Program-made: the position numbers and the translations under genes
Shown: positions 18,940-55,731 of the stretch, piece by piece
Numbering within the stretch: the first letter of the stretch is position 1
Layout of the letters: each line of letters opens with the position of its first letter
The notes under the pieces: generated by a model
The model's input: only the letters and a program-made list of their open reading frames with translations
What the model was told of the DNA's origin: nothing
Database searches by the model: none
From: Candidatus Woesearchaeota archaeon
GTDB taxonomy: Archaea; Nanobdellota; Nanobdellia; SCGC-AAA011-G17; PNOQ01
Direction: 5' to 3'
Assembly: GCA_964408705.1 (NCBI GenBank)
Contig: CAYPAI010000003.1
Span: forward strand, 5,382-69,381
DNA length: 64,000 bases

Positions 18940-19019
18940 TATTAATGATTCTGCTTAAAATATATATAAGGTTTTGGATTTTTAGAAATCTTTTTGAATG
19001 TTACTTTTTTTATTTTTGT

Positions 19020-32067: not shown

Positions 32068-32070
32068 TAT

Positions 32071-33138: not shown

Positions 33139-34186
33139 TTTTTAATATTATCTCCATAATTTTTTTTATATCTTTTTGAGAGTATCTTTGGTCAATAGGT
33201 ATTGTTAATATTGTTTTTGATATTTTCCAGCAGTTTTCGAATTCCTTACAGTTTATCTCTTCTGGAAGGGCCCAGTGAATAGGGGGGTATATTTTATTTT
33301 GGATTAATTTTTGTCTTATTTCATTTCTAACTTCATTAGACTGAAACAAAACTGGAAATCCTAAGGGGCATTCTTCATTAGTTAGATTAGTTATTACTGG
33401 TTTTAATTTATTAGTTCGATTTATTTGTGATAAGACGTAGTTATAATTTTTTTTTCTTTTTAGGTGGATCTCATTAAAATTAGTTCTTTCTATGATATAT
33501 TTTGATACTTTGGATATAGGTTTAGGTCTCCTATAGTTATTGATTAATTTTTCTTCTGATCTGATTATCAGTTTTCTTGCTAGTTTTTTAAAACCTACTA
33601 GTTTTAAGATTCCTGCATATAATCTTGTTTTATAAAATTTATTTGTATGTGTGTTTGGTAATATCTTTTTTTTAAAATCTCCAATTAAGAATGCCCCATC
33701 TGGGACTGGTAAAAACTTTCGATAACTATTGAAATTAAAATCACCATATTTAATATGGGAAGAGATAAATGATTGTACATTGTCTTCAACTAGTTTAATC
33801 TTTCTTTTTTCACAAACTTTCTTTATTTCTTTTATTTTTGGTTGAATTTTTCCGAAATAATTAATTAAAAAAAGTAATTTTATTGATTTATCTTTTAGTT
33901 TATTTTTAATATCTGTTAAATTTGGTTCCAAGTTATTATTAAGTTTATAGAATTTATAGCCTATATTATTTTTTTTTAATGGTTCCAGTATTGAGTCGCA
34001 TAAATATGAAGGGACTAAAACTTTTGATTTAAAAGTTATATTTTGAGATTTTATTATGTAATCTATACAATCCCTTCCATTAGATAATAATATCATTTTT
34101 GGATGGATATTTTTTATTTTTTTAGTAAAGATTGGAAGTTTTATCTTAAAATCTCCTCCAATCTCTTTTTTAAGATTAGTAATCAT
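33131..34186 (-). CDS. DegT-like fold-type-I enzyme (second putative sugar aminotransferase/dehydratase)
   Basis: VLVPSYLCDSI, KLVEDNVQSF and FNSYRKFLPVPDG resemble the DegT pattern loosely. Confidence 0.35.
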   Translation of the reverse strand: MITNLKKEIGGDFKIKLPIFTKKIKNIHPKMILLSNGRDCIDYIIKSQNITFKSKVLVPSYLCDSILEPLKKNNIGYKFYKLNNNLEPNLTDIKNKLKDKSIKLLFLINYFGKIQPKIKEIKKVCEKRKIKLVEDNVQSFISSHIKYGDFNFNSYRKFLPVPDGAFLIGDFKKKILPNTHTNKFYKTRLYAGILKLVGFKKLARKLIIRSEEKLINNYRRPKPISKVSKYIIERTNFNEIHLKRKKNYNYVLSQINRTNKLKPVITNLTNEECPLGFPVLFQSNEVRNEIRQKLIQNKIYPPIHWALPEEINCKEFENCWKISKTILTIPIDQRYSQKDIKKIMEIILKNV

Positions 34187-35300
34187 TTTTTTTATCTATT
34201 AATTTTTTGTTTAATTCTATTTTTTCTAAGATTTTACATATTTTTCCTTCAAAATTTTTTGACTTATAAGGATTTTTCAAATTTTCTAGTTTTTTTATAA
34301 AATTTTTATTTATTGCCTTTTGTATAGCTCTAGTTATTTCTTTTTGATTATGTTTAACATTTAATACATTATTTCCTTGTTCTCTGCCTCTTTGTCTATT
34401 TCCTATATTGATGCAAGGGGTCTTGAATTGAGGAGTTTCAACTATTCCAGAACTTGAGTTCCCAACTATAGCTGAACAATTCTTTAGTAGGCCCAAATAT
34501 GTGGATGGTTTCAAATTCTGAAAAGCTATAAAATTATCTTTTGAACTATACTCTTCAATTAAATCAATCATTTCTTTGGAGCCAGGTTCACCATTGGGAT
34601 AGATGATTATTGATTTTAGGTTAAGATTTTCTATTGACTTTAGGGTTTCTTCTAATTGTTTTTTAGATTTTTTTATTTCAGAAAAAACTGGGTGTTGCAA
34701 TACTAAGATAATCTCTTTGGATAAATCTATTTTTAAAATTTTTTCTAATTTTTCTTTTTTTGTTATTTTATTAAACAAAGGAGTTCCTATCATATGGATT
34801 CTCCACTTTTCCTCTCCCATCTTGATTATTCTTTGTTTGCTTTTTTTACTTCCTGGAAAGTGTATGTGGGAAAGTTTAGTTAATGCATGGCGAATTCTAT
34901 CATCTATAGATCCTGATATGTCTCCCCCTGAAATGTGGATTAAAGGAATATTAAGATGCATTCCTGCTATTGCAGTTGCTAATTGTTCATATCTATCTCC
35001 TTCTATCAAAATCAAATCTGGTTTTATTTCTTCAAAGGTTTTTGATAGTTCAATCAATAATTCTCCTGTAAAAACTGAAGTGTTTAATCCCTTATGGGAG
35101 ATGTTTACTGATCCTCTAATTTTTTTAAAAATAGGTAATTTTGTTTTTTCCAAAATTTTGATTCCAAGTTTATTAGTTAGATGTGTTCCAGTTACAATAA
35201 GTTGTAATTCTAGGTTCTTATTTTGATTTATCTGTTGTAAGGTGGGTAACATTAATCCAAACTCAGATCTTGATCCTGTAACATAAGCTATTTTTCTCAT
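34176..35300 (-). CDS. neuC: UDP-N-acetylglucosamine 2-epimerase, hydrolysing (NeuC/LegG-like)
   Basis: MRKIAYVTGSRSEFG, GDRYEQLATA, HISGGD. Confidence 0.7.
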   Translation of the reverse strand: MRKIAYVTGSRSEFGLMLPTLQQINQNKNLELQLIVTGTHLTNKLGIKILEKTKLPIFKKIRGSVNISHKGLNTSVFTGELLIELSKTFEEIKPDLILIEGDRYEQLATAIAGMHLNIPLIHISGGDISGSIDDRIRHALTKLSHIHFPGSKKSKQRIIKMGEEKWRIHMIGTPLFNKITKKEKLEKILKIDLSKEIILVLQHPVFSEIKKSKKQLEETLKSIENLNLKSIIIYPNGEPGSKEMIDLIEEYSSKDNFIAFQNLKPSTYLGLLKNCSAIVGNSSSGIVETPQFKTPCINIGNRQRGREQGNNVLNVKHNQKEITRAIQKAINKNFIKKLENLKNPYKSKNFEGKICKILEKIELNKKLIDKKNDY

Positions 35301-36379
35301 TCTAAATCTTCCATAACTATTATTTTATTTTTTTGTATACTTTTTTTGGTTTTTTTACCTAAAATTTTCTTAATTTCTTCTGGTCTGATACCCTTACCAT
35401 CTGCTCTTTTCATAGATGTGTTATTTTTAGTTAGTGTATCTCCTTTTTCTAAATTGAAGCTAGATACTATCGACTTTTGAAGGACTTTTTTATTTTTTAG
35501 TTCTGTCTTAGTAGGTATTTTATCATAAGAACCCCTTATTAGGTCATAGAATTTAGTTCCAATTTTGTTTTTTACATATTCTTTCTTGTTTTGTATTTTT
35601 TCTAATTTTCTAATTTCAAGCACTAATTCCTTTAATTGAGAAGAAGATAGTGCAAATTTATGATCTGGCCCATCTGCTAATGGATCATGGGTAAAGTGTT
35701 TTTCTATTATCTTTGCTCCGAGTGATACGGCTACAAGTGAACATTCAATGCCTAAAGTGTGGTCCGAGTATCCTACTATTCCTCCAGTTTTTTCCCTTAT
35801 AGTTAGCATTGAATTTAAATTTGCATCTTCATATTTAGTAGGATATTCACTTGTACAATGGAGAAAAATTAAGTTATTATTTATTTTACTAATTTTTTTT
35901 TGAATATCTGTTATTTGTTCAATATTGCTCATTCCAGTAGAAATAATTATTTTTTTTTGATAACTTGCAACATATTTTAAAAAACCTATGTTTGTTAATT
36001 CTCCTGAGCCAATTTTGATTATAGGTAAGTTTAGTTCTTCTATTAAAAATTTTGCACTTTTTTCTTCATCTGGAGTAGATAAAAATAATATATTTTTTTC
36101 TTCACAATATCTTTTTAATTTTTCAAAGTCTTTGTAAGTGAGTTCTAAGTTTTTTATCATATCAAATTGGCTTTCATTAGAACTTGTTCTTTCTTTTTGA
36201 TAATCTGCTTTTTTAGTGTTAGGAATAATTAACTCTTCAGTGATCCATGTTTGAAATTTAACTGCATCTGCTCCAGAGTCTTTAGCAATATCTACTAATA
36301 GTTTAGCTTTATCTAAACTACCGTCGTGACAAACTCCTGCTTCAGCAATAATAAAACAGCTATTATCTTCAGATAACAT
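35297..36379 (-). CDS. neuB: N-acylneuraminate (nonulosonic acid) synthase, NeuB/LegI-like with SAF domain
   Basis: CFIIAEAGVCHDGSLDKAKLLVDIAKDSGADAVKFQTW plus a C-terminal antifreeze-like domain. Confidence 0.8.
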   Translation of the reverse strand: MLSEDNSCFIIAEAGVCHDGSLDKAKLLVDIAKDSGADAVKFQTWITEELIIPNTKKADYQKERTSSNESQFDMIKNLELTYKDFEKLKRYCEEKNILFLSTPDEEKSAKFLIEELNLPIIKIGSGELTNIGFLKYVASYQKKIIISTGMSNIEQITDIQKKISKINNNLIFLHCTSEYPTKYEDANLNSMLTIREKTGGIVGYSDHTLGIECSLVAVSLGAKIIEKHFTHDPLADGPDHKFALSSSQLKELVLEIRKLEKIQNKKEYVKNKIGTKFYDLIRGSYDKIPTKTELKNKKVLQKSIVSSFNLEKGDTLTKNNTSMKRADGKGIRPEEIKKILGKKTKKSIQKNKIIVMEDLE

Positions 36380-36428
36380 AGTAGATTATACTCCCATTAT
36401 AGGCATTATAAGTCTTGTGAAAAAAAGA

Positions 36429-36986
36429 TTAAGAACTGTTATTTTGGTTGTATTCTTCTATTTCCATCCAGATTGAGTTTGGTGGAAACATAAACATAAG
36501 AAAGCTTTTTTCATAATATGTTTGCATTCTTTCTGATTTATTTATTAATTTTTTAATTAAATTTATTGGAAAATATTTATCAAAGTTTAAATTAAACCAT
36601 ATCTTATTTATTTTTAGGTTATAGTCTCTATTTATCCAATCATTCTTCTTTTTTCTTCTCTTGTCTAAATTTCTTAAATCAGTTATAGAGTATCCCATTG
36701 AAGAGATATCCTTTTCAAATATTACTGTCGACCTATAAATCAAAGGTGTGAAGTTTATTATTACTTTTTGTCCAATCCTACATAGTTCTTTCAAACTTGG
36801 TATGATCTCAGAAGTTTTTATATATGGTGTTACGCTTTTGCAGTATACCACACTAAACTCTTTATTTTTGAAAGGTTGTAGTTTAGGTAGAGGGGGTACA
36901 ACTTTATCAGGATTTACTTCTTTAGTTATATCTACATTTAAATATTCTTTTAATTTTTCTTTCCCGCATCCATAATTAATCTTCAT
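36429..36986 (-). CDS. Small class-I SAM methyltransferase-like protein
   Basis: INYGCGKEKLKEYLNVDI resembles Methyltransf_11/23 motif I. Confidence 0.3.
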   Translation of the reverse strand: MKINYGCGKEKLKEYLNVDITKEVNPDKVVPPLPKLQPFKNKEFSVVYCKSVTPYIKTSEIIPSLKELCRIGQKVIINFTPLIYRSTVIFEKDISSMGYSITDLRNLDKRRKKKNDWINRDYNLKINKIWFNLNFDKYFPINLIKKLINKSERMQTYYEKSFLMFMFPPNSIWMEIEEYNQNNSS

Positions 36987-38299
36987 TTTTTCTCTCTGAA
37001 TACAGGTCTTATTGAATCTCCTGTGAGGTGTTTTTTTATGTTTTCATCTTTCATTAAACATTTCATTGAAACCATGGCTTCACCATATATCTTTAATGCT
37101 AAATCTATGTCTTTTTCATTATGGGCGTAGCATGGTGCATGGTATAATCCTGCCAAAAGTCCCCTTTTCATACATTCTTGCTGAAATAAACTTTTAAACT
37201 CAAGATTTTCGATATCTAAATCATTGCTGTCCACTTCTATATCTGTCCAAGGAGCATATCCTTCGCACCAAAAATAATTTTTCAAGTTTAATTCTTCTGA
37301 TTTTTTGTTAAATCCGTCCTTGAGTTTAGAACCCATATGCCATATATGATCTATTATGTTATTTTTTTTAATTAAATCTATACATTTTATTGCTCCAGCT
37401 AATGATGCGCATTCTCCTCCAAAAGTTGATGAAAAAAATACTCCATCGAAAGTAAAATTATCCATTAGTTCAGCCTTTCCAACTAATGCAGATATCGGCA
37501 TCCCATTACCTATTGCTTTTCCAAATGTTGCTAAGTCTGGAGTTACGTTAAAATATTTTTGTGCACCCCCTAAACTAAATCTAAATCCAGTTATAATTTC
37601 ATCAAATATATATATTGCACCATGTTTGTGTGTCAATTCTTTTGATTTTTGTAAGAAATTATCTTTGGGTTCAGAAAGCTGTACTGGTTCCAATATTACT
37701 GCGGCTATCTCATTTGGATGTTCTCTAAATAGTTTTTTTAAAGATTCTAAGTTATTGTACTCAAATTTTAAAGTTAATTCTCTTATCTCATTTGGTATCC
37801 CTTTTTTCCTGTTCGTAGTCCCTATAAACCAATCATGAAATCCATGATATCCTCCGACTGCTATTTTTTTTCTTCCAGTTACTGCTCTTGCTAATCTTAT
37901 TGCCATAGTTGTTACATCTGATCCATTTTTTGCAAATTTAACTCTTTCAGCACAAGGAATATTTTCAATTAGTTTTTTTGCAGCCTCATTTTCTATAGGG
38001 CTTGGCATTGGAAAAAGTAATCCTTTTTTTAACTGATTAGTTATTGCTTTGTTAAATTCTTCATTATTATATCCTAAAATTGCAGGAAATCCTCCTGGTG
38101 CTAAATCTAGGAATTTATTCCCATCTACATCCCAGACATAACAACCCTCTCCCCTTTCTAAAAATTTAGGAGATGAGTTTGATACGTATTGAGTAGATCC
38201 ATGGCTTAAGGTATGGCACTGTGCAGGGATCGTAGTTTTTGCTTCAGAAAATATTTCTTCAGATTTTTTGTAATTATAATTTTTTAAATATTCATCCAT
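36983..38299 (-). CDS. Class-III PLP aminotransferase (glutamate-1-semialdehyde aminomutase-like)
   Basis: IFDEIITGFR; the PLP lysine region TFGKAIGNG. Confidence 0.65.
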   Translation of the reverse strand: MDEYLKNYNYKKSEEIFSEAKTTIPAQCHTLSHGSTQYVSNSSPKFLERGEGCYVWDVDGNKFLDLAPGGFPAILGYNNEEFNKAITNQLKKGLLFPMPSPIENEAAKKLIENIPCAERVKFAKNGSDVTTMAIRLARAVTGRKKIAVGGYHGFHDWFIGTTNRKKGIPNEIRELTLKFEYNNLESLKKLFREHPNEIAAVILEPVQLSEPKDNFLQKSKELTHKHGAIYIFDEIITGFRFSLGGAQKYFNVTPDLATFGKAIGNGMPISALVGKAELMDNFTFDGVFFSSTFGGECASLAGAIKCIDLIKKNNIIDHIWHMGSKLKDGFNKKSEELNLKNYFWCEGYAPWTDIEVDSNDLDIENLEFKSLFQQECMKRGLLAGLYHAPCYAHNEKDIDLALKIYGEAMVSMKCLMKDENIKKHLTGDSIRPVFREKK

Positions 38300-39026
38300 C
38301 TTGAGTTTCCTCCTTCATAATTAGTTCTGCTAACTTGAATTGAATAATATCATCTATTTCTATACTTCTTTTTTTTGGCATCAAAACTATTTTTGTTTTT
38401 AAGTGACTGTTTTCCCCATATGGATTAAATATTTTTGTGTTTGGGTCAAATAAGGTGTTATAAGTTATAGCATATACACCACCATTTATTATTAATTTAT
38501 TAAACTTATCATCTTGTCTTCTACTGTTTAATTTTTCTGTGTTTTCATATGGCTCAATATATCCATCTAATTTTTTAACCATTATGTCTGAGTTATCTAT
38601 TTCAAAAGGTGTAACTCCTACTACTGTGTTGACATCCTCTTTTTTTATTTCTTTAATTGCATTTTCAATATCTTCAATACTTCTTAGTGGGCTTGTCGGT
38701 TCTAATAAAATTATATACTCATAATGTTCCCCATTTTTTTCAAGGAATTTAGTTGCATGTCTTACTACTTCCATTGATGATGCACTATCTGTAGCTAAGT
38801 GTTCTGGCCTAATAAATGGTACTTCTGCACCATATTTTTTAGATATTTCTGCAATTTCCAAGTCATCTGTTGATACTATAGTTTTGTCTATTGATCTACA
38901 TTTGAGGGATTTTTCTATAGTATGGGCTATAAGTGGTTTTTTATTAAACTTTTTAATGTTTTTTCTAGGAATTCCTTTTGATCCGCCCCTTGCAGGTATT
39001 ACTGCTAATACTTTATTTTTTTCCAT
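38292..39026 (-). CDS. neuA: CMP-nonulosonic acid synthetase (acylneuraminate cytidylyltransferase, NeuA/LegF-like)
   Basis: VLAVIPARGGSKGIPRKNIKKFNKKPLIAHTI. Confidence 0.75.
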   Translation of the reverse strand: MEKNKVLAVIPARGGSKGIPRKNIKKFNKKPLIAHTIEKSLKCRSIDKTIVSTDDLEIAEISKKYGAEVPFIRPEHLATDSASSMEVVRHATKFLEKNGEHYEYIILLEPTSPLRSIEDIENAIKEIKKEDVNTVVGVTPFEIDNSDIMVKKLDGYIEPYENTEKLNSRRQDDKFNKLIINGGVYAITYNTLFDPNTKIFNPYGENSHLKTKIVLMPKKRSIEIDDIIQFKLAELIMKEETQDG

Positions 39027-40020
39027 TTTTTACTGATATTTGTTTTTTTTCTTTAGAACTTTCTTCAATTAGTTCTAAAATTTTTAGATTATAAAGATCT
39101 TCTTCTAAAGGATAAGGATATTTTGTTTTATTGTTTAGTGCAGAAATAAAACTTTTCATTTCTTCAATGTAGGGTTCTTCCTTATGGATGTATCCTTTTT
39201 CAATAGTTCCAGTTTCTTCACTATACTTTTTCCATTTTTTGTCTTTAGTTGTATAAACTTTGACTTGATTTTCTTTTTTATCCCATATGATTGTTCCTTT
39301 TTCCCCAATTATCTTTAATGATCTTTCAGGAATTCTTGAAATAACATCAACTATGATATTTCCTAAGGTATGTTCAAATCTTAAACTTATATTATATGTG
39401 TCCTCATAGTTTATATCTAGTGTTGAAAATTTACCTTTCATACAGTTTAAACTGTATATTTTTCCAAAAATCCAAGTTAGCCAAGTAAGTTCTCCAGGTA
39501 TTATTTCCCTACAGCCTCCAACTTCTTTATCTGACATGAAAAATTCATTAAAATTTTCCCAAGGGTGCCAATCTGGAAGATACTGTCCAACATGATAATT
39601 AAATGAGGAAACATTTCCTATTGTTTTTTTGTCCATTATCTGTTTAATCTTTTTAATTGATTCTAAGTTCCTCATATCATGTGATGCTGCAGCAAGTATA
39701 TTTTTTTCTTTTGCTAATTTAACAACTTTGTCTAATCCATTATTGATTATATTTAGTTCTGTAAAGAAAGGTTTATTTGCTTCTAATGATTTTTTTGCAT
39801 ACTCTGAATGATGTTGAGGAGGTGTAGATATAATTACAGCATCAGGGTCTTTACTCATGGCTTTTTGAAAATTATCAAATGTTTTTATCCCCATGCTCTC
39901 TACTTCCTTACGCCTATCTTCTCTTATATCAAATCCAATTATGTTGTTTTGTTTTAAGAATTTTAAATTTCTTATTCTTCTCTTTCCCATAGATCCTAAT
40001 CCTGCTATTAGAAATTTCAT
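39013..40020 (-). CDS. Gfo/Idh/MocA-family NAD(P) oxidoreductase
   Basis: MKFLIAGLGSMGKRRIRNL. Length 335 aa. Confidence 0.6.
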   Translation of the reverse strand: MKFLIAGLGSMGKRRIRNLKFLKQNNIIGFDIREDRRKEVESMGIKTFDNFQKAMSKDPDAVIISTPPQHHSEYAKKSLEANKPFFTELNIINNGLDKVVKLAKEKNILAAASHDMRNLESIKKIKQIMDKKTIGNVSSFNYHVGQYLPDWHPWENFNEFFMSDKEVGGCREIIPGELTWLTWIFGKIYSLNCMKGKFSTLDINYEDTYNISLRFEHTLGNIIVDVISRIPERSLKIIGEKGTIIWDKKENQVKVYTTKDKKWKKYSEETGTIEKGYIHKEEPYIEEMKSFISALNNKTKYPYPLEEDLYNLKILELIEESSKEKKQISVKNGKK

Positions 40021-40268
40021 AGTTTTACCTCTATAATTTGGTTTAGTTCTATTACTAGTTTTTCTTTTTGTTCATTAGACAGACCATGGGTCTCCATAGC
40101 TTCACCAAGTGTTTCTTTCCAGCTTCTCCTTCTACACATTGAACAGTAAAGGCCATACCTTCCCATGATCTTGCTTAAAATTTCATTGTCTGTAGATAAT
40201 ATTTTTTCTATAGGTGTATTTTTGTTTATGTTACTAGTATTTTCTTTTTTTATTTCTTTATCTTTCAT
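40017..40268 (-). CDS. DUF1858-like small protein (hybrid-cluster-associated redox-disulfide domain)
   Basis: GLYCSMCRRRSWKETLGEAMETHGL...LVIELNQI matches the DUF1858 pattern (C..C...TLEEA...HG). Confidence 0.35.
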   Translation of the reverse strand: MKDKEIKKENTSNINKNTPIEKILSTDNEILSKIMGRYGLYCSMCRRRSWKETLGEAMETHGLSNEQKEKLVIELNQIIEVKL

Positions 40269-41859
40269 AGTTTTTTATTATGTCCTTTATTTCCTTTATG
40301 ATCCTAGTTGTTGTCTTTCCATCTAATTTATAGCAATATTTTTTTATAAATTCCTTATTCTCCTTGTTTAATTTCTCTTTATATCTTTTATTAAATAGAA
40401 TTTTTTTGCTTTCTTTGTATAATTCTTCTGGTTTTTTAATTTTAGGGATTCCTTTGCTGTTTTTGTGAAAAACTCCATCCTTATCTATCATCTCACATGG
40501 ATAAATATCTATAAGTACTACTGGTTTTTTTAGAATACTAGCTTCCCATATTACTGAAGAGTAAAATGTTATTAACATATCTGAGTTTTTGATTAAAGAG
40601 TATAGGTGTTTTTTTCCTAGTTTTGCCTTTTTTATCTTGAAGTTTGTTAAATTTTTATTTTTAATTATTTTCGAGTATTCTACTATATTTTTTTCAAGAG
40701 GATGTGGTTTTATGATTATGTCATATCCCTCTATTTTTGATAATTTTTCTAGATATTTAGATATGTGTTTGAAGTATTTATCTTTTGAAATTACGTTTTC
40801 TTCAACCATAGGAGAGGTGCTGAATAAGATATATTTTTTCTTCTTTTTTTTATCTTCTGTTTTTGAAAATCTTATGAGTTTATTGTTAAAAATACTTCCA
40901 ACTACTCTTATTTGGTTTTTATTTGCACCTTTAGCTATGAACATTTTTTTTTGTAATTCGCCTGCTGTAAGAATGTGATGTGTATTTGGTAAATCCCATC
41001 TATATCCTGTAAGTCCGATTCCGTGAGAGATAGTTATACTTGGAATATTTAATTTATCTGAGGAGTATACTAGACACCTATCAGTTATATTATTTGGGGC
41101 ATAGAGGATTGATCCTTTAGTATTATTAATTTTTAATATTTTTTTGAAAGTTTCATAGTATAATATGGTAATAAATATCATTTCTTTTGAAAAAAAGAAG
41201 TTAAATGAATCATGATATATGTTAAATATTTGTTTATTTAATCCAGAAAATCTTATTTTTTTATTAACTATTTTCCAGTTATTAGATATTATTTTAGAAG
41301 CTAATTTAGCTTTTTTAATTTCTTTTAAGCCAACAAAACTGTTTAATAAATTTTTATGCTTTAATATGGAAAAGGAAATTTTTTCAGATAAGGGACTGAT
41401 TATGACCATATTTTTTTTTAAAGTTTTTTCCTTATCTATCAAGTTTAATACTTCTTCTATTCTGTCTATTTTATGTTTATGCTTGGTGAAAGATATTGCA
41501 TTAGTGTGTATTTGAAATAAGAGGTTTGAGTTCATATTTTTATTTAATCTTTTTTCTGTTAGTTTAGATAGTATTATTTTTCCAATTTCATTAAATAAAA
41601 TTCCTTTCCTTCTTAAATAATTTTTTAATCTTTTTCTTTTTGAATGTTTTTTTCTAATTAGTTTTATAATTGTAGAATCAAAATTATTAAAACCAGGGGG
41701 TAACATATTTCTTGCAAATCTTCTCCTATAGAAATTATCCCAAATAGAGTATCCATCATGTTTGAAATATTCTGAGAATTTAATTTCTCCGATTTTCTTG
41801 GTGGAAAGTTTATCAAAAAAATCTTCTAATTTACTGTATAATTCCTTTTTTAATTGCAT
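40258..41859 (-). CDS. CDP-glycerol glycerophosphotransferase-like (TagB/TagF family) putative phospho-alcohol transferase
   Basis: Basic 533-aa protein. DIIIKPHPLEK resembles the KPHP catalytic-His motif of the Glyphos_transf family. The call rests on one motif. Confidence 0.35.
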   Translation of the reverse strand: MQLKKELYSKLEDFFDKLSTKKIGEIKFSEYFKHDGYSIWDNFYRRRFARNMLPPGFNNFDSTIIKLIRKKHSKRKRLKNYLRRKGILFNEIGKIILSKLTEKRLNKNMNSNLLFQIHTNAISFTKHKHKIDRIEEVLNLIDKEKTLKKNMVIISPLSEKISFSILKHKNLLNSFVGLKEIKKAKLASKIISNNWKIVNKKIRFSGLNKQIFNIYHDSFNFFFSKEMIFITILYYETFKKILKINNTKGSILYAPNNITDRCLVYSSDKLNIPSITISHGIGLTGYRWDLPNTHHILTAGELQKKMFIAKGANKNQIRVVGSIFNNKLIRFSKTEDKKKKKKYILFSTSPMVEENVISKDKYFKHISKYLEKLSKIEGYDIIIKPHPLEKNIVEYSKIIKNKNLTNFKIKKAKLGKKHLYSLIKNSDMLITFYSSVIWEASILKKPVVLIDIYPCEMIDKDGVFHKNSKGIPKIKKPEELYKESKKILFNKRYKEKLNKENKEFIKKYCYKLDGKTTTRIIKEIKDIIKNYER

Positions 41860-43060
41860 TTTTTAATTTTGCTCTCCTTATAGATTTGCTTATTACTAAA
41901 AATAATTTATGTGCAAATGATTTAGTAATTAAATAATCAAATTTCATGATTGGTTTAAAATAAAACTTATTTTTGTTAAGAAAATCTATTTCTTCCCTAT
42001 ATAGCTTAAATCTTTTATTTAATACTTTCAGATATTCCTTTTTAATCTTAAAATTTTTTAAAGATTTATGTTTTATTAAATAGTCAAGGTAAATTCTTTG
42101 GTAAAAAAATTCTATAGGTAATACTGAATTTATTTCTTTTGTTTTTTTATAGATTCGGTTAGTTTTTTCGAATGAATCTTTTGAATCCCATTTTTTCAAG
42201 AATATACAGCTGTGTTCTTTTTCGATAAAAATGGCTATTTTTAAGTTTGAGTTAATGAATTTATTTTTTTTATATTCTTTTTTTAATTCTTCTATTAAGA
42301 AATAATTAAAAATTATGTTTTTTTTCATAATTTTGATAAGAGTGTCATATTTTTTGGGACCTAGTTTAAACCAATCTCTTCTTAATTTGTCTATACTGAG
42401 CATGTGTTTTTCCCATTCTGGGTACTTTTTGTTTGTTATTTCTTTCAATAGGTGCAAAGGATATTTCATGGAATTAAGTCTAGATAATACATTCCGTATA
42501 GGAATTTCCAATTTTCCTAAATTTATACCAAAAAGTTTAGATATTTCTTTAAAAATATATGAATATTTATTATTTGTTTTTATTTTCTTTTCTAAAAAGT
42601 ATCTTGTAAACTCTCTTGGCCAGTGAAAATTTATGTAGTCAGTTAATATTATTGTAGAGATTATTTTTTTATTTTTTATTTTTTTTATTTTTATGCTATT
42701 CCCATGCAACTTTTTTATAGAGAATACTGGGAATAAGTAATTTAATTCTGAAAAGTTTTTTTCACTTATCATTAAAGGATGGTGCATAATCAAGTAAGGA
42801 TGGGTCTTCATTGATTTTTCGATATAAGTTATGGTATTTTTTGTATCTACAATTTTATTTTTTAGTACAACTATAAAATCTAAGTCAGACATACCTAGTC
42901 TTGATACTTCACCGATTTGGTATATTGCACTAACATCTTTAGATTTTGAAACATATCTAATGAAATCTTTTTTTGCTTTATCATAATCAAGATTATTACG
43001 TTTTTTTGGAACATCTCTAAAGGTGAAGTTATCTTTTTGAATATCATTAAAAATTTTCAT
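41831..43060 (-). CDS. Nucleotidyltransferase-fold protein (minimal pol-beta-like motif), paralogous to the next gene
   Basis: QIGEVSRLGMSDLDFIVVL (G..S...DxD) near the N-terminus. Extremely Lys/Ile/Asn-rich. Confidence 0.3.
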   Translation of the reverse strand: MKIFNDIQKDNFTFRDVPKKRNNLDYDKAKKDFIRYVSKSKDVSAIYQIGEVSRLGMSDLDFIVVLKNKIVDTKNTITYIEKSMKTHPYLIMHHPLMISEKNFSELNYLFPVFSIKKLHGNSIKIKKIKNKKIISTIILTDYINFHWPREFTRYFLEKKIKTNNKYSYIFKEISKLFGINLGKLEIPIRNVLSRLNSMKYPLHLLKEITNKKYPEWEKHMLSIDKLRRDWFKLGPKKYDTLIKIMKKNIIFNYFLIEELKKEYKKNKFINSNLKIAIFIEKEHSCIFLKKWDSKDSFEKTNRIYKKTKEINSVLPIEFFYQRIYLDYLIKHKSLKNFKIKKEYLKVLNKRFKLYREEIDFLNKNKFYFKPIMKFDYLITKSFAHKLFLVISKSIRRAKLKNAIKKGIIQ

Positions 43061-44262
43061 TATTTCTCCTTTCTTAATTTTTTTTCCATCTTTGTTGCTA
43101 AGCTATCTGAAGCTATGATTAGTTTTTTCTTTTGTTTATCTAACTTAATAGGTTGTAAGTATGTTATCAAAGATGGTAGGTGTGGATTCCCTAATTTTGC
43201 CATTACTTTTAATATTTTTTTTAAAAGTTTATTCTCTTCTTTCCAGTTTTTCCTTATTTCTGTTGCCAAATCTATTGGTTCCCAATAATCAGTAAATTCT
43301 TTTTTAGCTGTATTGAAAGATTTTTTTTTATGAATATGGTGTCCTTTAGCTTGAAGATATAGTGTTGGAAGTAATAAGAGTTTAGATAAAAATAGTTTCC
43401 ATTGATATTTATTTTTTATTTTTATTTTATTATTTTTTACTTTGTTAAAATATTCTGTAAATTTTAAAAATATTTTTTTTCTTTCATCAAAATCATCTAA
43501 TACATCAAATTTTAATTCCTTTTTTCGGTTAGTTATTGCAATACAATGTTTGAATAGGTTTATTGGAAAATAATTTTGAGGATAGTTTTTCATTTCTTGT
43601 TCCAGAATTATTGAAAAACCATGGTGTTGTGCTGAGTCTAGAGTATAGAATTTGGATCTTAGTTTGGCAACTTCTTTCCTTAAACTAATTATTTTTTTCC
43701 ATTTCCAAGTGGTTTTTTCTTTTATTATAATCAGTGTATCAAGATCACTAAACCCTTTATAGTAATCTAAGGTAGACATACTTCCCTGTAAATAAATTCC
43801 ATCTACCCACTTTGATAAATCTTTAGATTTTTCTTCTATTTTGAATATGGGTTTTAAAAATTCTTTATCATTTGTTCTATTTTTCCAGTCATAGTAGTTT
43901 ATTATATCTTTTTTATTAATTATTTTTTTTGTTTTTGATAGGTTTAATGTAATAATTTGCTCATAAAATTCTTGTATTAGTAAGCTAATTATTTTTGAAT
44001 ATTTCTTAGAACTGAGATTTTTGTTTTTATTAGATTTGACTATCACATAACTGTATCTTAATATGTTGTTATATTCTTTGTTTATAGTTTTTATTTCTTT
44101 TAGAAGATGAGTTAGGTCATTTTTTGTTGTATCTATCATTGGGAAAAATAATTTGCTGCTAATTGTTAAGTTATCTAGATTTATGAACTCCTTAATTCTT
44201 TTGTGTAAACTGTTTTGATAGTTTAAGATTACATTTATTCTTGACATTTTTATTATCTTCAT
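43060..44262 (-). CDS. LicD-like nucleotidyltransferase-fold protein (candidate phospho(no)alcohol transferase)
   Basis: LQGSMSTLDYYKGFSDLDTLIII parallels the LicD core ([20 protein letters not shown]): G[ST]-x6-[HY]KGF-x-DxD. Confidence 0.4.
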   Translation of the reverse strand: MKIIKMSRINVILNYQNSLHKRIKEFINLDNLTISSKLFFPMIDTTKNDLTHLLKEIKTINKEYNNILRYSYVIVKSNKNKNLSSKKYSKIISLLIQEFYEQIITLNLSKTKKIINKKDIINYYDWKNRTNDKEFLKPIFKIEEKSKDLSKWVDGIYLQGSMSTLDYYKGFSDLDTLIIIKEKTTWKWKKIISLRKEVAKLRSKFYTLDSAQHHGFSIILEQEMKNYPQNYFPINLFKHCIAITNRKKELKFDVLDDFDERKKIFLKFTEYFNKVKNNKIKIKNKYQWKLFLSKLLLLPTLYLQAKGHHIHKKKSFNTAKKEFTDYWEPIDLATEIRKNWKEENKLLKKILKVMAKLGNPHLPSLITYLQPIKLDKQKKKLIIASDSLATKMEKKLRKEK

Positions 44263-44344: not shown

Positions 44345-45331
44345 TTGAAGATGAATCCAGAAGTATCAATAATCATTGTGACATGGAATCAGCCTAGTTA
44401 TACTATTCCTTGTGTAAGGTCTGTTCTTCAGCAAACTGGAAGTTTTGAGGTCATTATAGTAGATAATGGGTCTAAAGACGATTCAATTAGGAAGTATAGG
44501 GATAACTTTGGAAAAAATGGAAAAGTTAAGATTATAGCTTCTAATAGAAACTTGGGGTATGCTGGTGGAAATAATCTTGGAGTAAAAAAAAGTAAGGGTA
44601 AATATATTGTTATTTTGAATAATGATACTACTGTAGAACAAAACTGGTTAAATGAGCTTATCAAACCCTTAAAAGAGGATGAGGATGTTGGTGCAGTTAA
44701 TTCACATGAGATTAGGAATGGCAAAAGAATAAGTATAAATTATTTTAAAAATTTTGAGGTTAAAATGAATGTGCTTCAGTATGGGGTTAAACAAAAAAGA
44801 AAAAAGCAATTAAAAGATTTAGAAATTATCGATTCTGGAAGTATAAAAGGTGCTTGTTTTGCATACAGGAGAGAACTTATTGGGATCCCATTCGATAAAG
44901 ATTATTTTATCTACGGGGAAGATACTAAACTGGGATGGATTATAAAATGTAAAGGATATAAGATTAAGACTGCCATTAAGTCTGTATTTAACCATCATCA
45001 TAATGTTACACGTAAGGAAAATAAAACTTTCAATAAACATGCGGCATTTTTAGGTGAGAGAAATATGATTATGAATTTACTTACTTTTTATAATCTTTTT
45101 AATACTCTTAGGATTATTCCATTTTTAATTTTAAGAATATTTGTTATAAATATTTTACAACCTAGAGATATTTTTATGAGAATTAAGGCATATCTGTGGT
45201 TGTGTTTAAACTTAAAATTAGTTTTTAAAAAAAGAAAAGAAATTTCTTTCTTAAAAATCAACAAAGACAAAGAATTATTTAAGGATCTGACTTGGAAATT
45301 TTTTTCACGTACCTCAGAGGATTACAATTAA
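44345..45331 (+). CDS. Family-2 glycosyltransferase
   Basis: VSIIIVTWNQ...IIVDNGSKDDS...NLGYAGGNN...LNNDT. Confidence 0.7.
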   Translation: MKMNPEVSIIIVTWNQPSYTIPCVRSVLQQTGSFEVIIVDNGSKDDSIRKYRDNFGKNGKVKIIASNRNLGYAGGNNLGVKKSKGKYIVILNNDTTVEQNWLNELIKPLKEDEDVGAVNSHEIRNGKRISINYFKNFEVKMNVLQYGVKQKRKKQLKDLEIIDSGSIKGACFAYRRELIGIPFDKDYFIYGEDTKLGWIIKCKGYKIKTAIKSVFNHHHNVTRKENKTFNKHAAFLGERNMIMNLLTFYNLFNTLRIIPFLILRIFVINILQPRDIFMRIKAYLWLCLNLKLVFKKRKEISFLKINKDKELFKDLTWKFFSRTSEDYN

Positions 45332-46449
45332 TATATTTTTTTTAATATCTCGATTAAGTTTTGCTTTTTGATTCTTCTTGGATTATTTTTCATTCTGTCT
45401 TTGTTAAATCCATTGTTTATAATGATATCAATATCTTTCTTTGTATTAATTTTTAGACTATTTAGTGAAGTTTCTAAATTAATTTTTTTTAATAATTTTT
45501 TTAAGTCTTGCCTAGGATTTTTGAATTTTGTTAAATCTTTTAATTTGTCCATAGTTTGTTTTACATATTTTAAACCCCGAATATCTTCGCAATCCTTAGA
45601 GTTTGTTTTTAAATTATATTCAAATATTTCTCCTAGGGTTAATGAAACTGCATGTCCATGAGGGATCCCAAAATAGGAAGTTAATGGGTAGGAGATTGAA
45701 TGACATGCTGTAGTTTGAGATATATTTATTGCTTTTCCTGCTAAGTTAGATGCTTTTGACATCATAATCCTATTTTTCTTACTTGGATTGTTTACTGCAT
45801 CTTCAATGTTTTCTATAGTTAGAGTTATTGCTTTTTTTGCATACATTTTAGATTCTTCTGTAGATTTAATTGACCAGTAACTCTCTATGGCCTGACTTAA
45901 TGCATCCATTCCAGTACTTGCAGTGATATGTGGTGGCAGATTAAATGTTAATTCAGGATCAATTATGGAATAATCTGGTAATATCTTTTTGTTATTTAAT
46001 GAATGTTTATTTTTTCCAATATACACTGTAGCAAATTGAGTTGCTTCGCTTCCAGTTCCCGAAGTTGTGGGGATTGCAATTAATTTATTGTTTTTTTTAA
46101 TTAGACTTTTATTTTTTAGAATATAACTTATTGGGTTTTCTTTTTGATAAGCTAGAATATTTATCGATTTTGCTATATCTATCACGCTACCTCCGCCAAT
46201 TGCAATAATCATATCATAATCTTTTTTATTGTATTCTTTAATTCCTTTTTCTATATCTTTTAATTTGTTATTTTTTGAAAAATTGTTAAATTGAGTAAAA
46301 TTATAACTGGATAAAATATTTTCTAATTTTTGTTTTATTTTGCTGTATGATCTTTTACCAGTAATTAAAAAAATATTTTTAGAATTCTCCTTTTTTAAGA
46401 TATCCTCTAAATGGTGTATACTTCCTGTTCCAAAATATTCTTTTTGCAT
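45328..46449 (-). CDS. Group-III iron-containing alcohol dehydrogenase (candidate phosphonoacetaldehyde reductase, PhpC/FomC-like)
   Basis: DMIIAIGGGSVIDIAKS metal/NAD motif. Immediately downstream of the phosphonopyruvate decarboxylase gene, in the same operon orientation. Confidence 0.6.
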   Translation of the reverse strand: MQKEYFGTGSIHHLEDILKKENSKNIFLITGKRSYSKIKQKLENILSSYNFTQFNNFSKNNKLKDIEKGIKEYNKKDYDMIIAIGGGSVIDIAKSINILAYQKENPISYILKNKSLIKKNNKLIAIPTTSGTGSEATQFATVYIGKNKHSLNNKKILPDYSIIDPELTFNLPPHITASTGMDALSQAIESYWSIKSTEESKMYAKKAITLTIENIEDAVNNPSKKNRIMMSKASNLAGKAINISQTTACHSISYPLTSYFGIPHGHAVSLTLGEIFEYNLKTNSKDCEDIRGLKYVKQTMDKLKDLTKFKNPRQDLKKLLKKINLETSLNSLKINTKKDIDIIINNGFNKDRMKNNPRRIKKQNLIEILKKIY

Positions 46450-46450
46450 T

Positions 46451-47578
46451 TTATTTTTTTAAAAATTTCATGAATGATTTTTTGTTTTCAATTGGTAAGG
46501 TTTTTGGTCTTCCCAAATCATTCCTACTGCCCTTTCTTATTTTTATTTCTAATAGTATTGGCCCATTTTTTTCCTTTAAAAATTTTAAATTATGTTTTAA
46601 TTCCTGTTTATTTTTTGCTTCTAGAGTATGTTTATAATTACAGGCTCTTGCAATTTTTTGGAGATCTATATATCTGCTAGATGTTGGTTGACCACCTACT
46701 GAATCATGTGATTCGTTGTTAAAAATTATGTGTTTAAAATTAGTTGGAGAAATTGATCCTATTGTTGCTAATGCCCCCATATGCATGATTAAAGATCCAT
46801 CACCATCTAAACAGAATATACTTTTGTCTTTTTTTTGTAAAGCTATGCCCAATGCAATTGAAGATGTGTGCCCCATTGATCCAACTGTATAAAAATCATT
46901 TTCATGTTTTTGATAGTTTTTTTCTCTAAACTCAAATAACTCTCTAGATAGTTTTCCCGTAGTAGAAACTATTACGTTTTCCTTATTTAAACCTTTAACA
47001 ACTTCAGTTAATGCTTCTTCTCTTGAAAGGTTATACTTCTTTGGCGATTCTTCAAGTAATTCATATTGTTCAAAAGTATTTTTTTTAATTACTAATGCAT
47101 AAGGAGAATTATTCTTTTCAGAATAATTTACTGCTTCGGTTATAATTTTAGAAATTTCCTTTGTTTCAGACGATATTATCTTGTAAGGTATTTCTAAATC
47201 TTCTAATAATCTTAAAGTAATTTTTCCTTGTTTTATATGTTGTGGCTCATCCTTTAATCCTGGTTCCCCCCTCCACCCTATCATTAATAATAATGGGATG
47301 CTATAAACTTCTTTGTCAGTTAATGAGCTTAAAGGATTTATTGCGTTTCCTTGTCCAGAATTTTGTAAGTATGCTAGTCCAATTTTTTTAGTAGATAAGT
47401 GATATCCTGCAGCTAATGCTATAGAATTTCCTTCATTTGCAGCAATTATATGGTTTTGTTTATCTACATTATCTTGAAGATATGCGCAAAATGATTTCAG
47501 TAAGGAATCTGGGACCCCTGTGAAAAATTCTATCCCATTTTTCTTTAAAATATTATAAAATTCTTTTATATTTATCAT
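46451..47578 (-). CDS. ppd: Phosphonopyruvate (sulfopyruvate-type) decarboxylase, TPP-dependent
   Basis: [14 protein letters not shown]-domain. TPP motif [16 protein letters not shown]...[11 protein letters not shown]. About 375 aa. The start was trimmed to Met 16, giving a 4-nt overlap with the upstream gene. Confidence 0.65.
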
Positions 47579-48873
47579 TTGTGTTCTGGAATTAAGTTTA
47601 TTATCTCCTTGATAGGCATACATATTTTATTGTTAGCTTCAAAAGATCTTCCTTCTTTTAAGATAGATTCTGCAGTTTTTATCATTGCAGGGTATGCACT
47701 TCTTAAAAGATGATTTGCATAAATTACTACACTAATTCCCTCTTTTTTTAATTCTTTTTCTGTGATATGGCAATATGTGGAAGGTACTACTACTAATGGT
47801 ACTTTATTCTCTATTTTGGAGAATTCCTTGCAAAACTCTAATATCTCTGTTGATTCTTTTTCTTTACTATGAATCATTATTCCATCGGCCCCTGCCGAAA
47901 TGTATGCTTTTGATCTTTTTATTGCGTCTTCTATTCCCTTTCCTAGAATTAGACTTTCTATCCTTGCAATTATCATAAAATCTTCCGATATCTGTGATTT
48001 TTTTCCTGCTTTTATTTTTTTACTGAACAATTCCATACTGTCTTGTTTTTGGTTAGCATCTTTTCCGAATAATGAATTTTTTTTGAATCCTATTTTGTCT
48101 TCTATTATTATTGCAGATACTCCAAGTCGTTCTAATGTCCTAATTGTAAATGGAAAATGTTCTGTTCTCCCTCCAGTATCTCCATCAACTATAATTGGTT
48201 TTGTAGTTGTTTCTATTACTTGATTTAAGGTATCCATTCTTTCAACTAGTTCTATGTCAGGTTTTCCTTTTGCAGTTGAATCAGTTAAACTACTTATCCA
48301 AATTCCATCAAATTCTTCTTTTTTATTATTTTTTATTATTTTTGTATTTTCTACTATGAGTCCACTTAAGCCATTATGTGCTTCTAAAAATCTAATAATC
48401 TCTTTTGCATTCAATAATCTTCTTAATTTTTTCATTCTAATCTCAGGAGTGGTTCCAATTTTTTTAATTAGTTGATGTAATTGGGTTGAAGAGATTCCTG
48501 GAGTATATGGTATTTCTATTAGTTCCCCACCCCATAAGGAAATAGTGTCTAAAACTCTTTTTCTTGTTTCTTTTTGTATTCCTTCTTTCCAATCATCTCC
48601 ATGTACAACATAATCTGGTTTTATTTTCATTAAATTTGGAACATAATCTAAGGTATCTTGAGGGACAACTTGGCTAATTCCCTTGATATTCTCAATTACT
48701 TTTTTTCTTTGTTCATAAGTCAGGGCAGGCAATCTTTTGTAGCTGGCTATCGCTTTGTCAGTTAGTAATCCCAATGTCACTTCCCCATATTTTTTTGCTT
48801 CGTTGATTATGTTTAGGTGTCCGTGATGTATTAAATCTGCACTCATCCCAATATACACTTTTTTAGCTTTCAT
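47575..48873 (-). CDS. pepM: Cytidylyltransferase-PEP mutase fusion (N-terminal HxGH nucleotidyltransferase, C-terminal phosphoenolpyruvate phosphomutase)
   Basis: N-terminal [16 protein letters not shown] (CTP-transferase HxGH). C-terminal [12 protein letters not shown]...DGDTGG...[14 protein letters not shown], that is the PepM-specific EDKxxxxxNS motif that separates PepM from other ICL-family members. Confidence 0.75.
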
Positions 48874-48968
48874 TTTATAATTTTAGATTTTAAACTATTA
48901 ATAAAAGTTGTTTATCTATGTTCTATATTAAAAATTGATGATTATATCGAAAATTAAATAAACATATC

Positions 48969-49631
48969 TTGATTTATAAGGATATGAGTCAGATTATGAA
49001 TTTAAGAAAAAAGCCATATAGTGAGTCTTATTTAACTCAATTATTTAGATTTTTTTCTTATCCATTTACATATTTACTTTGTAAGATTAATGTTACACCT
49101 AATCAAATCTCATTTTTTAGTTTTATTTTAGTTTTATTTTCAGCATATCTTTTTTCTACAGGATTAAGTAATTATTTAGTAGTTGGTGGTCTAATTTATT
49201 TTTTTAGTGCAATTTTAGACCATTCAGATGGTGAAGTTGCAAGAGTAAAGGGTGTTGAGAGTAAATTTGGTATGTGGTTTGATGGAGTTTTAGATAGGGT
49301 TGGAGATGTTTTTGTTTTAATAGGTATCTCTATAGGTGTTTTTGTTAAATCTCCTAAAATAGAAATTTTAATATTAGTTTTATTTGCAGTTATTAGTACT
49401 ACCATCTGGAGATTTTTAACTCTTTATACTGATTCAATTTTAAATTTTGATAAAAATACTACTATAAAAGCTAAAAAGATTGGTTTTGATGCTCCTATGA
49501 TGTATTTTTTAGTAACTTTAGCAGCGTTATTTGATAAATTTGTTTATCTTTTGTTATTTTTTGCAATTTTAGTAAATTTGGCATGGGTAAGAAATTTAAT
49601 TATTTGGTCCATTAAATATAGAAAAACCTAA
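48969..49631 (+). CDS. CDP-alcohol phosphatidyltransferase-family membrane protein
   Basis: DHSDGEVARVKGVESKFGMWFDGVLDRVGD matches D-G-x2-A-R-x8-G-x3-D-x3-D. Multi-TM. Confidence 0.65.
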   Translation: MIYKDMSQIMNLRKKPYSESYLTQLFRFFSYPFTYLLCKINVTPNQISFFSFILVLFSAYLFSTGLSNYLVVGGLIYFFSAILDHSDGEVARVKGVESKFGMWFDGVLDRVGDVFVLIGISIGVFVKSPKIEILILVLFAVISTTIWRFLTLYTDSILNFDKNTTIKAKKIGFDAPMMYFLVTLAALFDKFVYLLLFFAILVNLAWVRNLIIWSIKYRKT

Positions 49632-55730: not shown

Positions 55731-55731
55731 G

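Follow-up and report, generated by a model that had tools for sequence, protein, structure and literature searches.

What is the role of three adjacent, AT-rich genes that stand between the genes for CMP-nonulosonate synthesis and a CMP-phosphonate module in a small archaeon? The genes, here called open reading frames (ORFs) 1, 2 and 3, belong to a stretch of 64,000 nucleotides (the window) of contig CAYPAI010000003.1 from a Candidatus Woesearchaeota archaeon (GenBank assembly GCA_964408705.1). An initial annotation had given the exact coordinates of the three ORFs, all of them real and on the minus strand, and had placed them correctly between the two pathways. It took ORF2 and ORF3 for LicD-like proteins and ORF1 for a TagF-like one, and proposed the trio as the best candidates to attach the phosphonate, or another phospho-alcohol, to a glycan. 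We have found that ORF3-like and ORF2-like genes are a widely conserved, uncharacterised pair of surface-glycan loci, with genes for nonulosonic acids (NulO) as frequent neighbors. The model that we put forward, with a probability of about 0.45, is that ORF3 and ORF2 would form a two-subunit nucleotidyltransferase (NTase) enzyme acting on a glycan precursor, and ORF1 would be a CMP-releasing transferase.

The LicD proposal had been based on short motifs. These motifs, quoted for ORF1, ORF2 and ORF3, are indeed present and their residues are conserved among relatives, i.e., they are not there by chance. In ORF3 the motif is GSMSTLDYYKGFSDLDTLIII (residues 160-180). When 64 relatives were aligned, S161, D173, D175, H214, P299 and K312 were invariant and H159, G160, D209, Q212, H213, K289 and R337 nearly invariant. 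The arrangement of G160-S161, 11 residues and D173-L-D175 fits the pattern hG[GS]-x9-13-D-h-[DE]-h of the Pol-beta superfamily (PF01909/PF18765). The AlphaFold model of ORF3, built on the 64-sequence alignment, had a predicted local distance difference test score (pLDDT) of 95.5 and a predicted template modelling score (pTM) of 0.92, with a helix at residues 137-151 and strands at 153-159 and 175-180. Comparison of this model to the Protein Data Bank (PDB) with Foldseek gave AAD(9) (6xxq) at the top (E 5e-3, probability 0.98), and after it AadA, ANT(4'), LinB, DrrA and GlnE. The NTase family PF01909 was matched by 37 of the 64 relatives (best 1.7e-7) and Polbeta by 11, while ORF3 itself scored 20.1 bits to PF01909, for which the cut-off is 21. 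Hence the NTase fold assigned in the initial annotation stands, and the model makes ORF3 a confident NTase-fold protein, with aminoglycoside adenylyltransferases (AAD(9), AadA, ANT(4')) as the enzymes that it resembles most. The motif itself is the generic G-S...D-x-D signature of the Pol-beta superfamily, and as such it is evidence of the fold and not of LicD ancestry. A profile search of the PDB with the ORF3 family matched AAD(9) over the motif only (E 0.076), PDB searches with the single sequences of ORF1, ORF2 and ORF3 gave no match, and no Pfam or NCBIfam model specific for aminoglycoside nucleotidyltransferases (ANT) matched ORF3 or ORF2.

The size of the ORF3 family was revealed by an exhaustive profile search over 1.84 billion cluster representatives, which was needed for that purpose; a word-indexed search had produced 10 relatives for ORF3, 3 for ORF2 and 3 for ORF1. 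We obtained 1,561 matches at E ≤ 1e-3, and 725 at E ≤ 1e-30. At 50% identity the family comprises about 1,560 clusters, and Pfam and NCBIfam hold no specific model for it. A search of viral folds in BFVD returned generic NTases only, and tblastn of ORF3 against plasmids gave no match.

ORF2 is much more divergent. Pfam and NCBIfam gave no match for the protein itself. Its motif, GEVSRLGMSDLDFIVVL, is located at residues 50-66, and G50, G56, S58, D59, D61, D141, R227 and W230 were invariant in 15 relatives from related loci. However, the alignment of the ORF3 and ORF2 family profiles with hhalign reached a probability of 90% (E 1.5e-6) over 175 columns. These cover the NTase core together with some of the helical domain, and contain an R-x-x-W motif common to the two families. 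Besides, in natural fusion proteins (see below) the Polbeta match lies in the ORF2-like half. The AlphaFold model of ORF2, derived from six sequences, was poor overall (pLDDT 54) and confident at residues 10-100; Foldseek with this model again placed AAD(9) at the top (E 1.2e-2), and also found the minimal NTase 2rff of Sulfolobus. These comparisons make ORF2 a remote paralogue of ORF3 with an NTase fold, in agreement with the weaker motif that the initial annotation had noted in it. As third catalytic carboxylate, D209 or E221 are candidates in ORF3, and D141 in ORF2.

We have analyzed the association of the two genes in 108 related loci, found in metagenomes and in species-representative genomes. 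Of these, 68 were at least 8 kb long and 46 were non-redundant and contained an ORF3-like gene. An ORF2-like gene (called at E < 1e-5) was located within 300 bp of the ORF3-like one in 34 of the 46 and at 0.7-2.5 kb in three more; both were a single fused gene in another three, and in the remaining six none was found at that threshold. The hidden Markov models of the two families gave no cross-matches at E ≤ 1e-5. The fusions have an ORF3-like module followed by an ORF2-like module in P0111 (786 aa) and in P0163 (979 aa), the latter ending in tetratricopeptide repeats (TPR). A MAG (metagenome-assembled genome) of the Patescibacteria group (L020) has a 648-aa ORF3/ORF2 fusion, and in a Saccharibacteria MAG (L018) an open reading frame appears to run through both modules. 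P0117 (1122 aa, with TPR) has a complete ORF3-like module and a second region with an NTase motif that the ORF2 profile did not match. In P0127 a sugar O-methyltransferase is fused to the ORF3-like module, and the ORF2-like gene comes next; the matches of P0127 to phages run through the methyltransferase half only.

The genes around the pair were counted within about 10 kb in 48 non-redundant locus groups. The pair is embedded in glycan operons of archaea and of several bacterial phyla, and it is statistically associated with NulO genes. The most frequent neighbors were CMP-NulO synthetase (21 groups), NeuB (20), DegT aminotransferase (19), GFO oxidoreductase (14) and Wzx flippase (13), and GT4 glycosyltransferases and methyltransferases were also frequent. 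A Fom1-type cytidylyltransferase domain and a CDP-alcohol transferase were found in three groups each, and phosphoenolpyruvate (PEP) mutase in one, that of the window. The order ORF3-ORF2-ORF1 is kept in locus L001, beside a class-III aminotransferase, a CMP-NulO synthetase fusion and NeuB, and with no PEP mutase. The closest named relatives of the trio are Woesearchaeota MAGs.

Some of these loci have features of their own. In L001 (12336-15572) an ORF of 62 aa, located between a B12-radical-SAM (S-adenosylmethionine) gene and the ORF2-like gene, is similar by eye to the N-terminus of the ORF1-like gene further downstream. It may be a duplicated fragment, and this would point to an insertion of the radical-SAM gene into an ancestral order ORF3-ORF2-ORF1. 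One Woesearchaeota clade (L003, L010-L016 and related metagenome loci) has the pair in convergent arrangement right after Wzx. The constant companions there are unknown proteins of about 267-293 and 731-746 aa with no Pfam match, and there are up to three B12-radical-SAM genes per locus. L027 and L028, contigs of 59 kb, are phage-like: small ORFs abound, and there are two N6/N4 DNA methyltransferases. They also carry two NeuB genes, a CMP-sugar synthetase, a GT2 glycosyltransferase, a fusion of sugar O-methyltransferase and ORF3-like module, and an ORF2-like gene. The whole looks like a NulO pathway, NTase pair included, carried by a mobile or viral element. The unknown 390-aa neighbors in marine loci were considered as homologues of ORF2 or ORF1 and discarded, given that they produced weak HMM matches only and no Pfam match.

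In the window, the trio heads a minus-strand operon of about 14-16 kb that runs into a NulO pathway of the legionaminic/pseudaminic type, since start and stop codons overlap from gene to gene. The stop codon of ORF3 and the start of ORF2 overlap by 1 nt, ORF2 and ORF1 overlap by 29 nt, and ORF1 overlaps an 83-aa gene that in turn overlaps the next one. Such overlaps connect the trio with the NulO side only, and a plus-strand GT2 gene, which has 58% identity to its counterpart beside the pair in L001, parts it from the phosphonate genes, which lie upstream. No transmembrane segments were found in ORF1, ORF2 or ORF3. The 83-aa gene, DUF1858-like, was rejected as a part of the conserved module, having no homologue in the related loci. 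Table 1 gives the coordinates of the features.

Table 1. Trio, its conserved regions and the genes at both sides (nucleotide positions are those of the window; residue numbers are those of each protein).
Feature	Position	Strand	Description
ORF3	43060-44262	minus	400 aa; first gene of the operon
ORF3, N-terminal helical region	about residues 1-130		
ORF3, Pol-beta-type NTase core	about residues 137-255		G160-S161, D173-x-D175, D209, Q212-H213-H214
ORF3, C-terminal helical bundle			K289, K312, R337
ORF2	41831-43060	minus	409 aa
ORF2, NTase core			G50, G56, S58, D59-x-D61, D141
ORF2, helical C-terminal region			R227, W230
ORF1	40258-41859	minus	533 aa
ORF1, motifs	residues 384-387; 352-354; 513-519		KPHP (H386-P387); E-E-N; C-terminal D513-G514...R519
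NulO pathway (legionaminic/pseudaminic-type), downstream part of the operon of the trio	29934-40268	minus	Pfam and NCBIfam matches; start and stop codons overlapping or tightly spaced; in order of transcription: 83-aa DUF1858-like, GFO/IDH/MocA oxidoreductase, CMP-NulO synthetase (PseF-like), class-III aminotransferase, 185-aa unknown, NeuB, NeuC-like hydrolysing 2-epimerase, DegT-like protein, FemAB-like protein, DegT aminotransferase, PseB-like dehydratase
GT2 glycosyltransferase	44345-45331	plus	divergently transcribed; between the trio and the phosphonate genes
Phosphonate module, outside the operon of the trio	45328-49631		Fe-alcohol dehydrogenase, phosphonopyruvate decarboxylase, cytidylyltransferase-PEP mutase fusion (Fom1-like)
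Membrane CDP-alcohol phosphotransferase-family protein	48969-49631	plus	CDP-OH family matches; directly beside the phosphonate genes

The TagF-like assignment of ORF1 was correct at the family level. ORF1 matches PF04464 (Glyphos_transf) with 37.7 bits (cut-off 22.1, E 1.6e-9, residues 371-524), 9 of its 11 relatives do so as well (best 1.7e-15), and the best PDB match of the family profile was TarL (8va1), a ribitol-phosphate polymerase (1.2e-9). Other Pfam matches of ORF1 were Epimerase_2 (UDP-GlcNAc 2-epimerase, 1.2e-9) and Capsule_synth (3e-5), and two of the 11 relatives matched the polysialyltransferase family PF07388. The best NCBIfam model was the BFO_1060 family (NF046086; 1e-16, 61.1 bits), and TarF was also matched (8e-8, 32 bits). 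P387 was invariant in the 11 relatives, and KPHP, noticed already in the initial annotation, is the HP motif common to enzymes of the BFO_1060/TagF type and bacterial sialyltransferases. Both types of enzymes, TagF and sialyltransferase, release CMP. The HP and D/E-D/E-G motifs have been described for the bacterial sialyltransferases (PMC5420450); in ORF1 the acidic motif is E-E-N (E-D-N in relatives), without the terminal G. In Tannerella, BFO_1060 and its orthologues Tanf_01245 and TFUB4_00887 are TagB-domain proteins, and deletion of genes of the Tanf_01245/TFUB4_00887 type strips the O-glycan of its pseudaminic or legionaminic acid derivative (PMC5420450).

Like ORF1, these T. forsythia proteins and SpsB of Bacillus subtilis have the GT-B glycosyltransferase fold and are encoded in NulO clusters; they are TagB-domain proteins with HP and acidic motifs. 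What ORF1 has in common with TagF, TarF and TarL is a C-terminal domain of the GT-B type, the HP motif and a terminal D-G...R motif, but only its C-terminal half can be aligned to TagF/TarL, the N-terminal 300 residues are unique to a small ORF1 clade and, unlike them, ORF1 sits in a NulO-pathway operon. Stand-alone TagD or TarIJ were not found in the window, where the sole cytidylyltransferase-like domain, of the TagD type, forms a fusion with PEP mutase. ORF1-like genes are present in several copies in those NulO loci of candidate phyla radiation (CPR) bacteria where no homologue of PEP mutase turned up. Given the operon, the donor of ORF1 would most likely be CMP-NulO, with CMP-hydroxyethylphosphonate or a CDP-alcohol also conceivable.

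Among known systems, the best structural matches of both ORF3 and ORF2 are the ANT enzymes. ANT(9)/AAD(9), the ANT(3'')(9) AadA, ANT(4')/KNTase and LinB have, like the pair, a Pol-beta NTase core with G-S...D-x-D followed by a helical domain, which in ANT enzymes binds the substrate or the triphosphate; their substrates are amino-sugar hydroxyls. On the other hand, the sequence similarity of ORF3 to them is restricted to the motif, some 130 residues at the N-terminus of ORF3 are extra, and ORF3/ORF2 is a hetero-pair or fusion instead of a homodimer, and belongs to biosynthetic glycan operons and not to resistance elements. GlnE, among the fold matches of ORF3, is also a single functional unit built of two NTase modules in tandem, with helical domains, but it acts on a protein tyrosine, has no glycan context and its similarity is very low. 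KNTase (kanamycin nucleotidyltransferase) and LinB are obligate dimers with their active sites at the interface, and the D-x-D pairs are retained in both ORF3 and ORF2, which makes a heterodimeric ANT-like enzyme the simplest reading.

We propose that ORF3 and ORF2 would be two subunits of one cytoplasmic enzyme made of two divergent ANT-like modules, each with a Pol-beta NTase core and a helical substrate domain, assembled like the KNTase dimer with active sites at the subunit interface. With Mg2+ held by the D-x-D pairs, the enzyme would join a phosphodiester to a hydroxyl of a sugar in the precursor of a surface glycan. The acceptor would most often be a NulO-containing glycan or NulO itself, and the donor most likely a nucleoside triphosphate (NTP), leading to O-nucleotidylylation as in ANT enzymes, with a CMP- or CDP-linked donor less likely. 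Both the structural neighbors of the models and the Lys and Arg that are conserved in the helical domain favor such a transfer of a nucleoside monophosphate from NTP over a LicD-like one. ORF1 would then be a GT-B transferase with a CMP-releasing donor, most likely CMP-NulO from the downstream genes, as are the NulO transferases of the BFO_1060 family of Tannerella. What the analysis shows are the folds, the families of the proteins, the pairing and fusions of ORF3 and ORF2, the structure of the operon and the statistical link to NulO genes, while the heterodimer, acceptor, donor and chemistry are what we infer.

Several observations weigh against this proposal. With E-values of 5e-3 and worse, the Foldseek matches of ORF3 with ANT enzymes are weak, and their TM-scores are low; gene pairing and fusions are all that speaks for a heterodimer, and no characterised close relative of the trio came out of the Pfam, NCBIfam, PDB or literature searches, the latter giving nothing relevant on an NTase in NulO clusters. 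To our knowledge, O-nucleotidylylated surface glycans are not an established modification. About one quarter of the loci, those of a Woesearchaeota clade, have the pair with no NeuB within 10 kb and carry B12-radical-SAM and other unknown genes instead; therefore, the acceptor cannot always be NulO. For ORF1, the 61 bits to BFO_1060 are far under the curated cut-off of 200, and SpsB, the TagB-domain protein of the legionaminic acid (Leg) cluster of B. subtilis, is dispensable for Leg transfer (PMC7439481).

Which other roles could the three genes have? The phosphonate module beside them resembles the early steps of fosfomycin synthesis and is predicted to make CMP-2-hydroxyethylphosphonate (CMP-HEP), from matches to NCBIfam models for Ppd (1.9e-151) and PEP mutase (1e-116), the latter with an N-terminal cytidylyltransferase domain, a fusion for which Fom1 is the precedent (PMC6697681). 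If the pair were LicD/FKRP-like, as initially annotated, it would move a CMP- or CDP-activated phospho(no)alcohol (here CMP-HEP from the Fom1-like module) to a glycan hydroxyl with release of CMP. LicD-like phosphotransferases accompany bacterial CMP-phosphonate synthesis (PMC6697681), and a cytidylyltransferase and a CDP-alcohol transferase are found within a few kb of the pair in the window, L001 and L009. The chemistry would be feasible as well: LicD, fukutin and FKRP (PF04991 and relatives) are, like the pair, members of the NTase superfamily and have its D-x-D metal site, they decorate glycans from CDP-activated donors, and they are genomically associated with cytidylyltransferases. This local neighborhood keeps a LicD-like transfer alive for the pair. 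However, the loci that carry both genes are the window and its two closest relatives and, although suggestive, their gene order may be simply inherited. Over the whole family the neighbors are NulO genes and not CDP-alcohol pathways, with about 20 groups each for NeuB and CMP-NulO synthetase versus three for cytidylyltransferase, three for CDP-alcohol transferase and one for PEP mutase. The LicD family (PF04991) gave no match at E ≤ 1 for ORF2 or ORF3 and none at E ≤ 0.01 among the 64 relatives of ORF3, no LicD or FKRP chain was listed in the Foldseek search of the PDB with ORF3, in which a structural match to fukutin was likewise absent, and the nearest structures are those of NTP-using ANT enzymes. 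Neither Maf nor DUF115 matched any of the three proteins in Pfam, Maf matches were also absent among the 64 relatives of ORF3 and in the fold search, and the extended motif typical of LicD, G-T-L-L-G...W-D-D-D-x-D, is absent from ORF3 and ORF2. The LicD-like assignment fails; the resemblance is limited to the motif that the whole NTase superfamily has in common. Besides, the trio and the phosphonate genes do not share one orientation, and the argument for phosphonate attachment had overlooked the membrane CDP-alcohol phosphotransferase that adjoins them. This protein is itself a candidate for phosphonyl transfer to lipid or glycan, what would be interesting in a DPANN archaeon. Overall, we consider a LicD-like pair improbable, and the idea of the trio as phosphonate transferases possible but poorly supported. 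As an aside, in L009 (4251-8688) and L001 (4015-7820) the CDP-alcohol transferase, a small cytidylyltransferase and an HD-domain protein stand beside a transporter and not beside PEP mutase. The transporter is a PhnD-type phosphonate ABC importer in L009, a feature that would suit a LicD-like pair, and an MFS transporter, together with two cytidylyltransferases, in L001. This suggests scavenging followed by cytidylyl-activation of a phosphonate or phospho-alcohol, with a Lic-like logic.

It could also be ORF1, and not the NTase pair, that transfers the hydroxyethylphosphonyl group of CMP-HEP, or glycerol or ribitol phosphate, to the glycan, NulO being added by another enzyme. CMP-HEP is a phosphonate analogue of a CDP-alcohol (compare Fom1, PMC6697681), the PF04464 score of ORF1 and of most of its relatives and the TarL structure point in this direction, and SpsB is unnecessary for Leg transfer. 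Nevertheless, the NulO-transferase model BFO_1060 scores about twice as high as TarF, two relatives match a polysialyltransferase family, the ORF1-like genes multiply in CPR NulO loci where PEP mutase is undetected, and ORF1 is translationally linked to the NulO pathway; we regard this role as rather unlikely. A protein target of the pair, such as an S-layer protein or a pilin, modified by a nucleotidylyl transferase of the GlnE or DrrA kind or by a new NulO- or protein-modifying enzyme, would agree with the C-terminal TPR of P0117 and P0163, with the presence of DrrA and GlnE among the fold matches and with the two tandem NTase modules of GlnE. We find it very unlikely, as fusions with TPR make up a small minority, in another relative the fusion partner is a sugar O-methyltransferase, and the genes lie among nucleotide-sugar and glycosyltransferase genes, often directly after the gene of the Wzx flippase. 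Finally, variable glycan islands might harbor the pair as a toxin-antitoxin, cyclic-oligonucleotide-based antiphage signaling (CBASS-like) or other defense module, given that minimal NTases abound in archaeal toxin-antitoxin systems and that CD-NTases (CdnD, CdnE) appeared among the weak matches. This we reject as hardly credible: the trio had no PADLOC match, a HEPN partner is absent, in size and helical domains the proteins agree with ANT-type enzymes, and the neighbors are glycan genes across archaea and several bacterial phyla.

The unusual composition of the trio, which had been taken as a hint of foreign origin or relaxed constraint, was also analyzed. The run is indeed AT-rich and rich in Lys, Asn and Ile. 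The GC of the three genes is 0.224-0.239 compared to a mean of 0.285 (standard deviation 0.030) for the genes of the window, and Lys makes 18-19% of the proteins compared to a mean of 11% (standard deviation 4.2%), so that they are among the lowest in GC and the most Lys-rich of the window. However, the GC at third codon positions (GC3) is 0.204-0.210, not lower than the window mean of 0.190. Therefore, the AT-richness resides in the first and second codon positions, i.e., in a protein composition rich in Lys, Asn and Ile, and a foreign origin is not supported by the GC3. Several other genes of the window, e.g., 51259-52485 and 33131-34186, have a similar composition. The AT-richness is amino-acid drift, as expected of weakly constrained proteins in an AT-rich genome, and is not a sign of recent import.

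Other genes of the window bear on the glycan. Within the NulO pathway there is a FemAB-family protein (32071-33138, minus strand) that may attach an amino acid to the amino group of a sugar, producing an unusual N-acyl NulO, possibly in an aminoacyl-tRNA-dependent step. The last gene of the operon (28424-29941, minus strand) codes for a 505-aa type I phosphodiesterase of the alkaline-phosphatase superfamily. This superfamily includes phospho-alcohol transferases, and the protein is another possible glycan-decorating enzyme. The glycan cluster is flanked by a PMT_2-family glycosyltransferase (55684-57375) and an 852-aa AglB/STT3-like oligosaccharyltransferase (59100-61658), suggesting that the glycan is attached to protein. 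Apart from the glycan genes, the window has an archaeal AMP-salvage set (16464-23055), with AMP phosphorylase (16464-17936), the RuBisCO large subunit (20218-21618) and an IF-2B-family gene similar to ribose-1,5-bisphosphate isomerase (22252-23055). Together with the AglB/STT3-like gene, this gene content points to a probable DPANN, Woesearchaeota-like, origin of the window. There are also two large ORFs (6470-10609, 1379 aa, and 13059-15131, 690 aa) with no NCBIfam match at E ≤ 1e-5.

The superfamilies of the trio, Pol-beta NTases and TagF-like GT-B proteins, were already known, but the hetero-pair with its NulO-glycan context is an uncharacterised family. ORF3 and ORF2 could represent an undescribed and widespread class of heteromeric, sometimes fused, NTase-fold enzymes for a step of NulO-glycan synthesis in DPANN archaea, CPR bacteria, SAR11 and some phage-like elements. 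We hold this as a tentative and rather doubtful generalization, in which the step could be O-nucleotidylylation or other phosphodiester decoration of the glycan. More radical, if true, would be the transfer of NulO by an NTase-fold enzyme, a new kind of sialyltransferase-like activity. The link to LicD and phosphonates is corrected here, with ORF1 and the membrane CDP-alcohol phosphotransferase as better candidates to use CMP-linked donors. NulO, sialic-acid-like sugars, decorate many microbial surfaces and the enzymes that transfer or tailor them are poorly known. The pair follows NulO and other surface-glycan loci in ultra-small archaea, CPR bacteria and marine SAR11-type bacteria, and the ORF3/ORF2 family is a concrete, testable candidate for the missing step of NulO tailoring or transfer.

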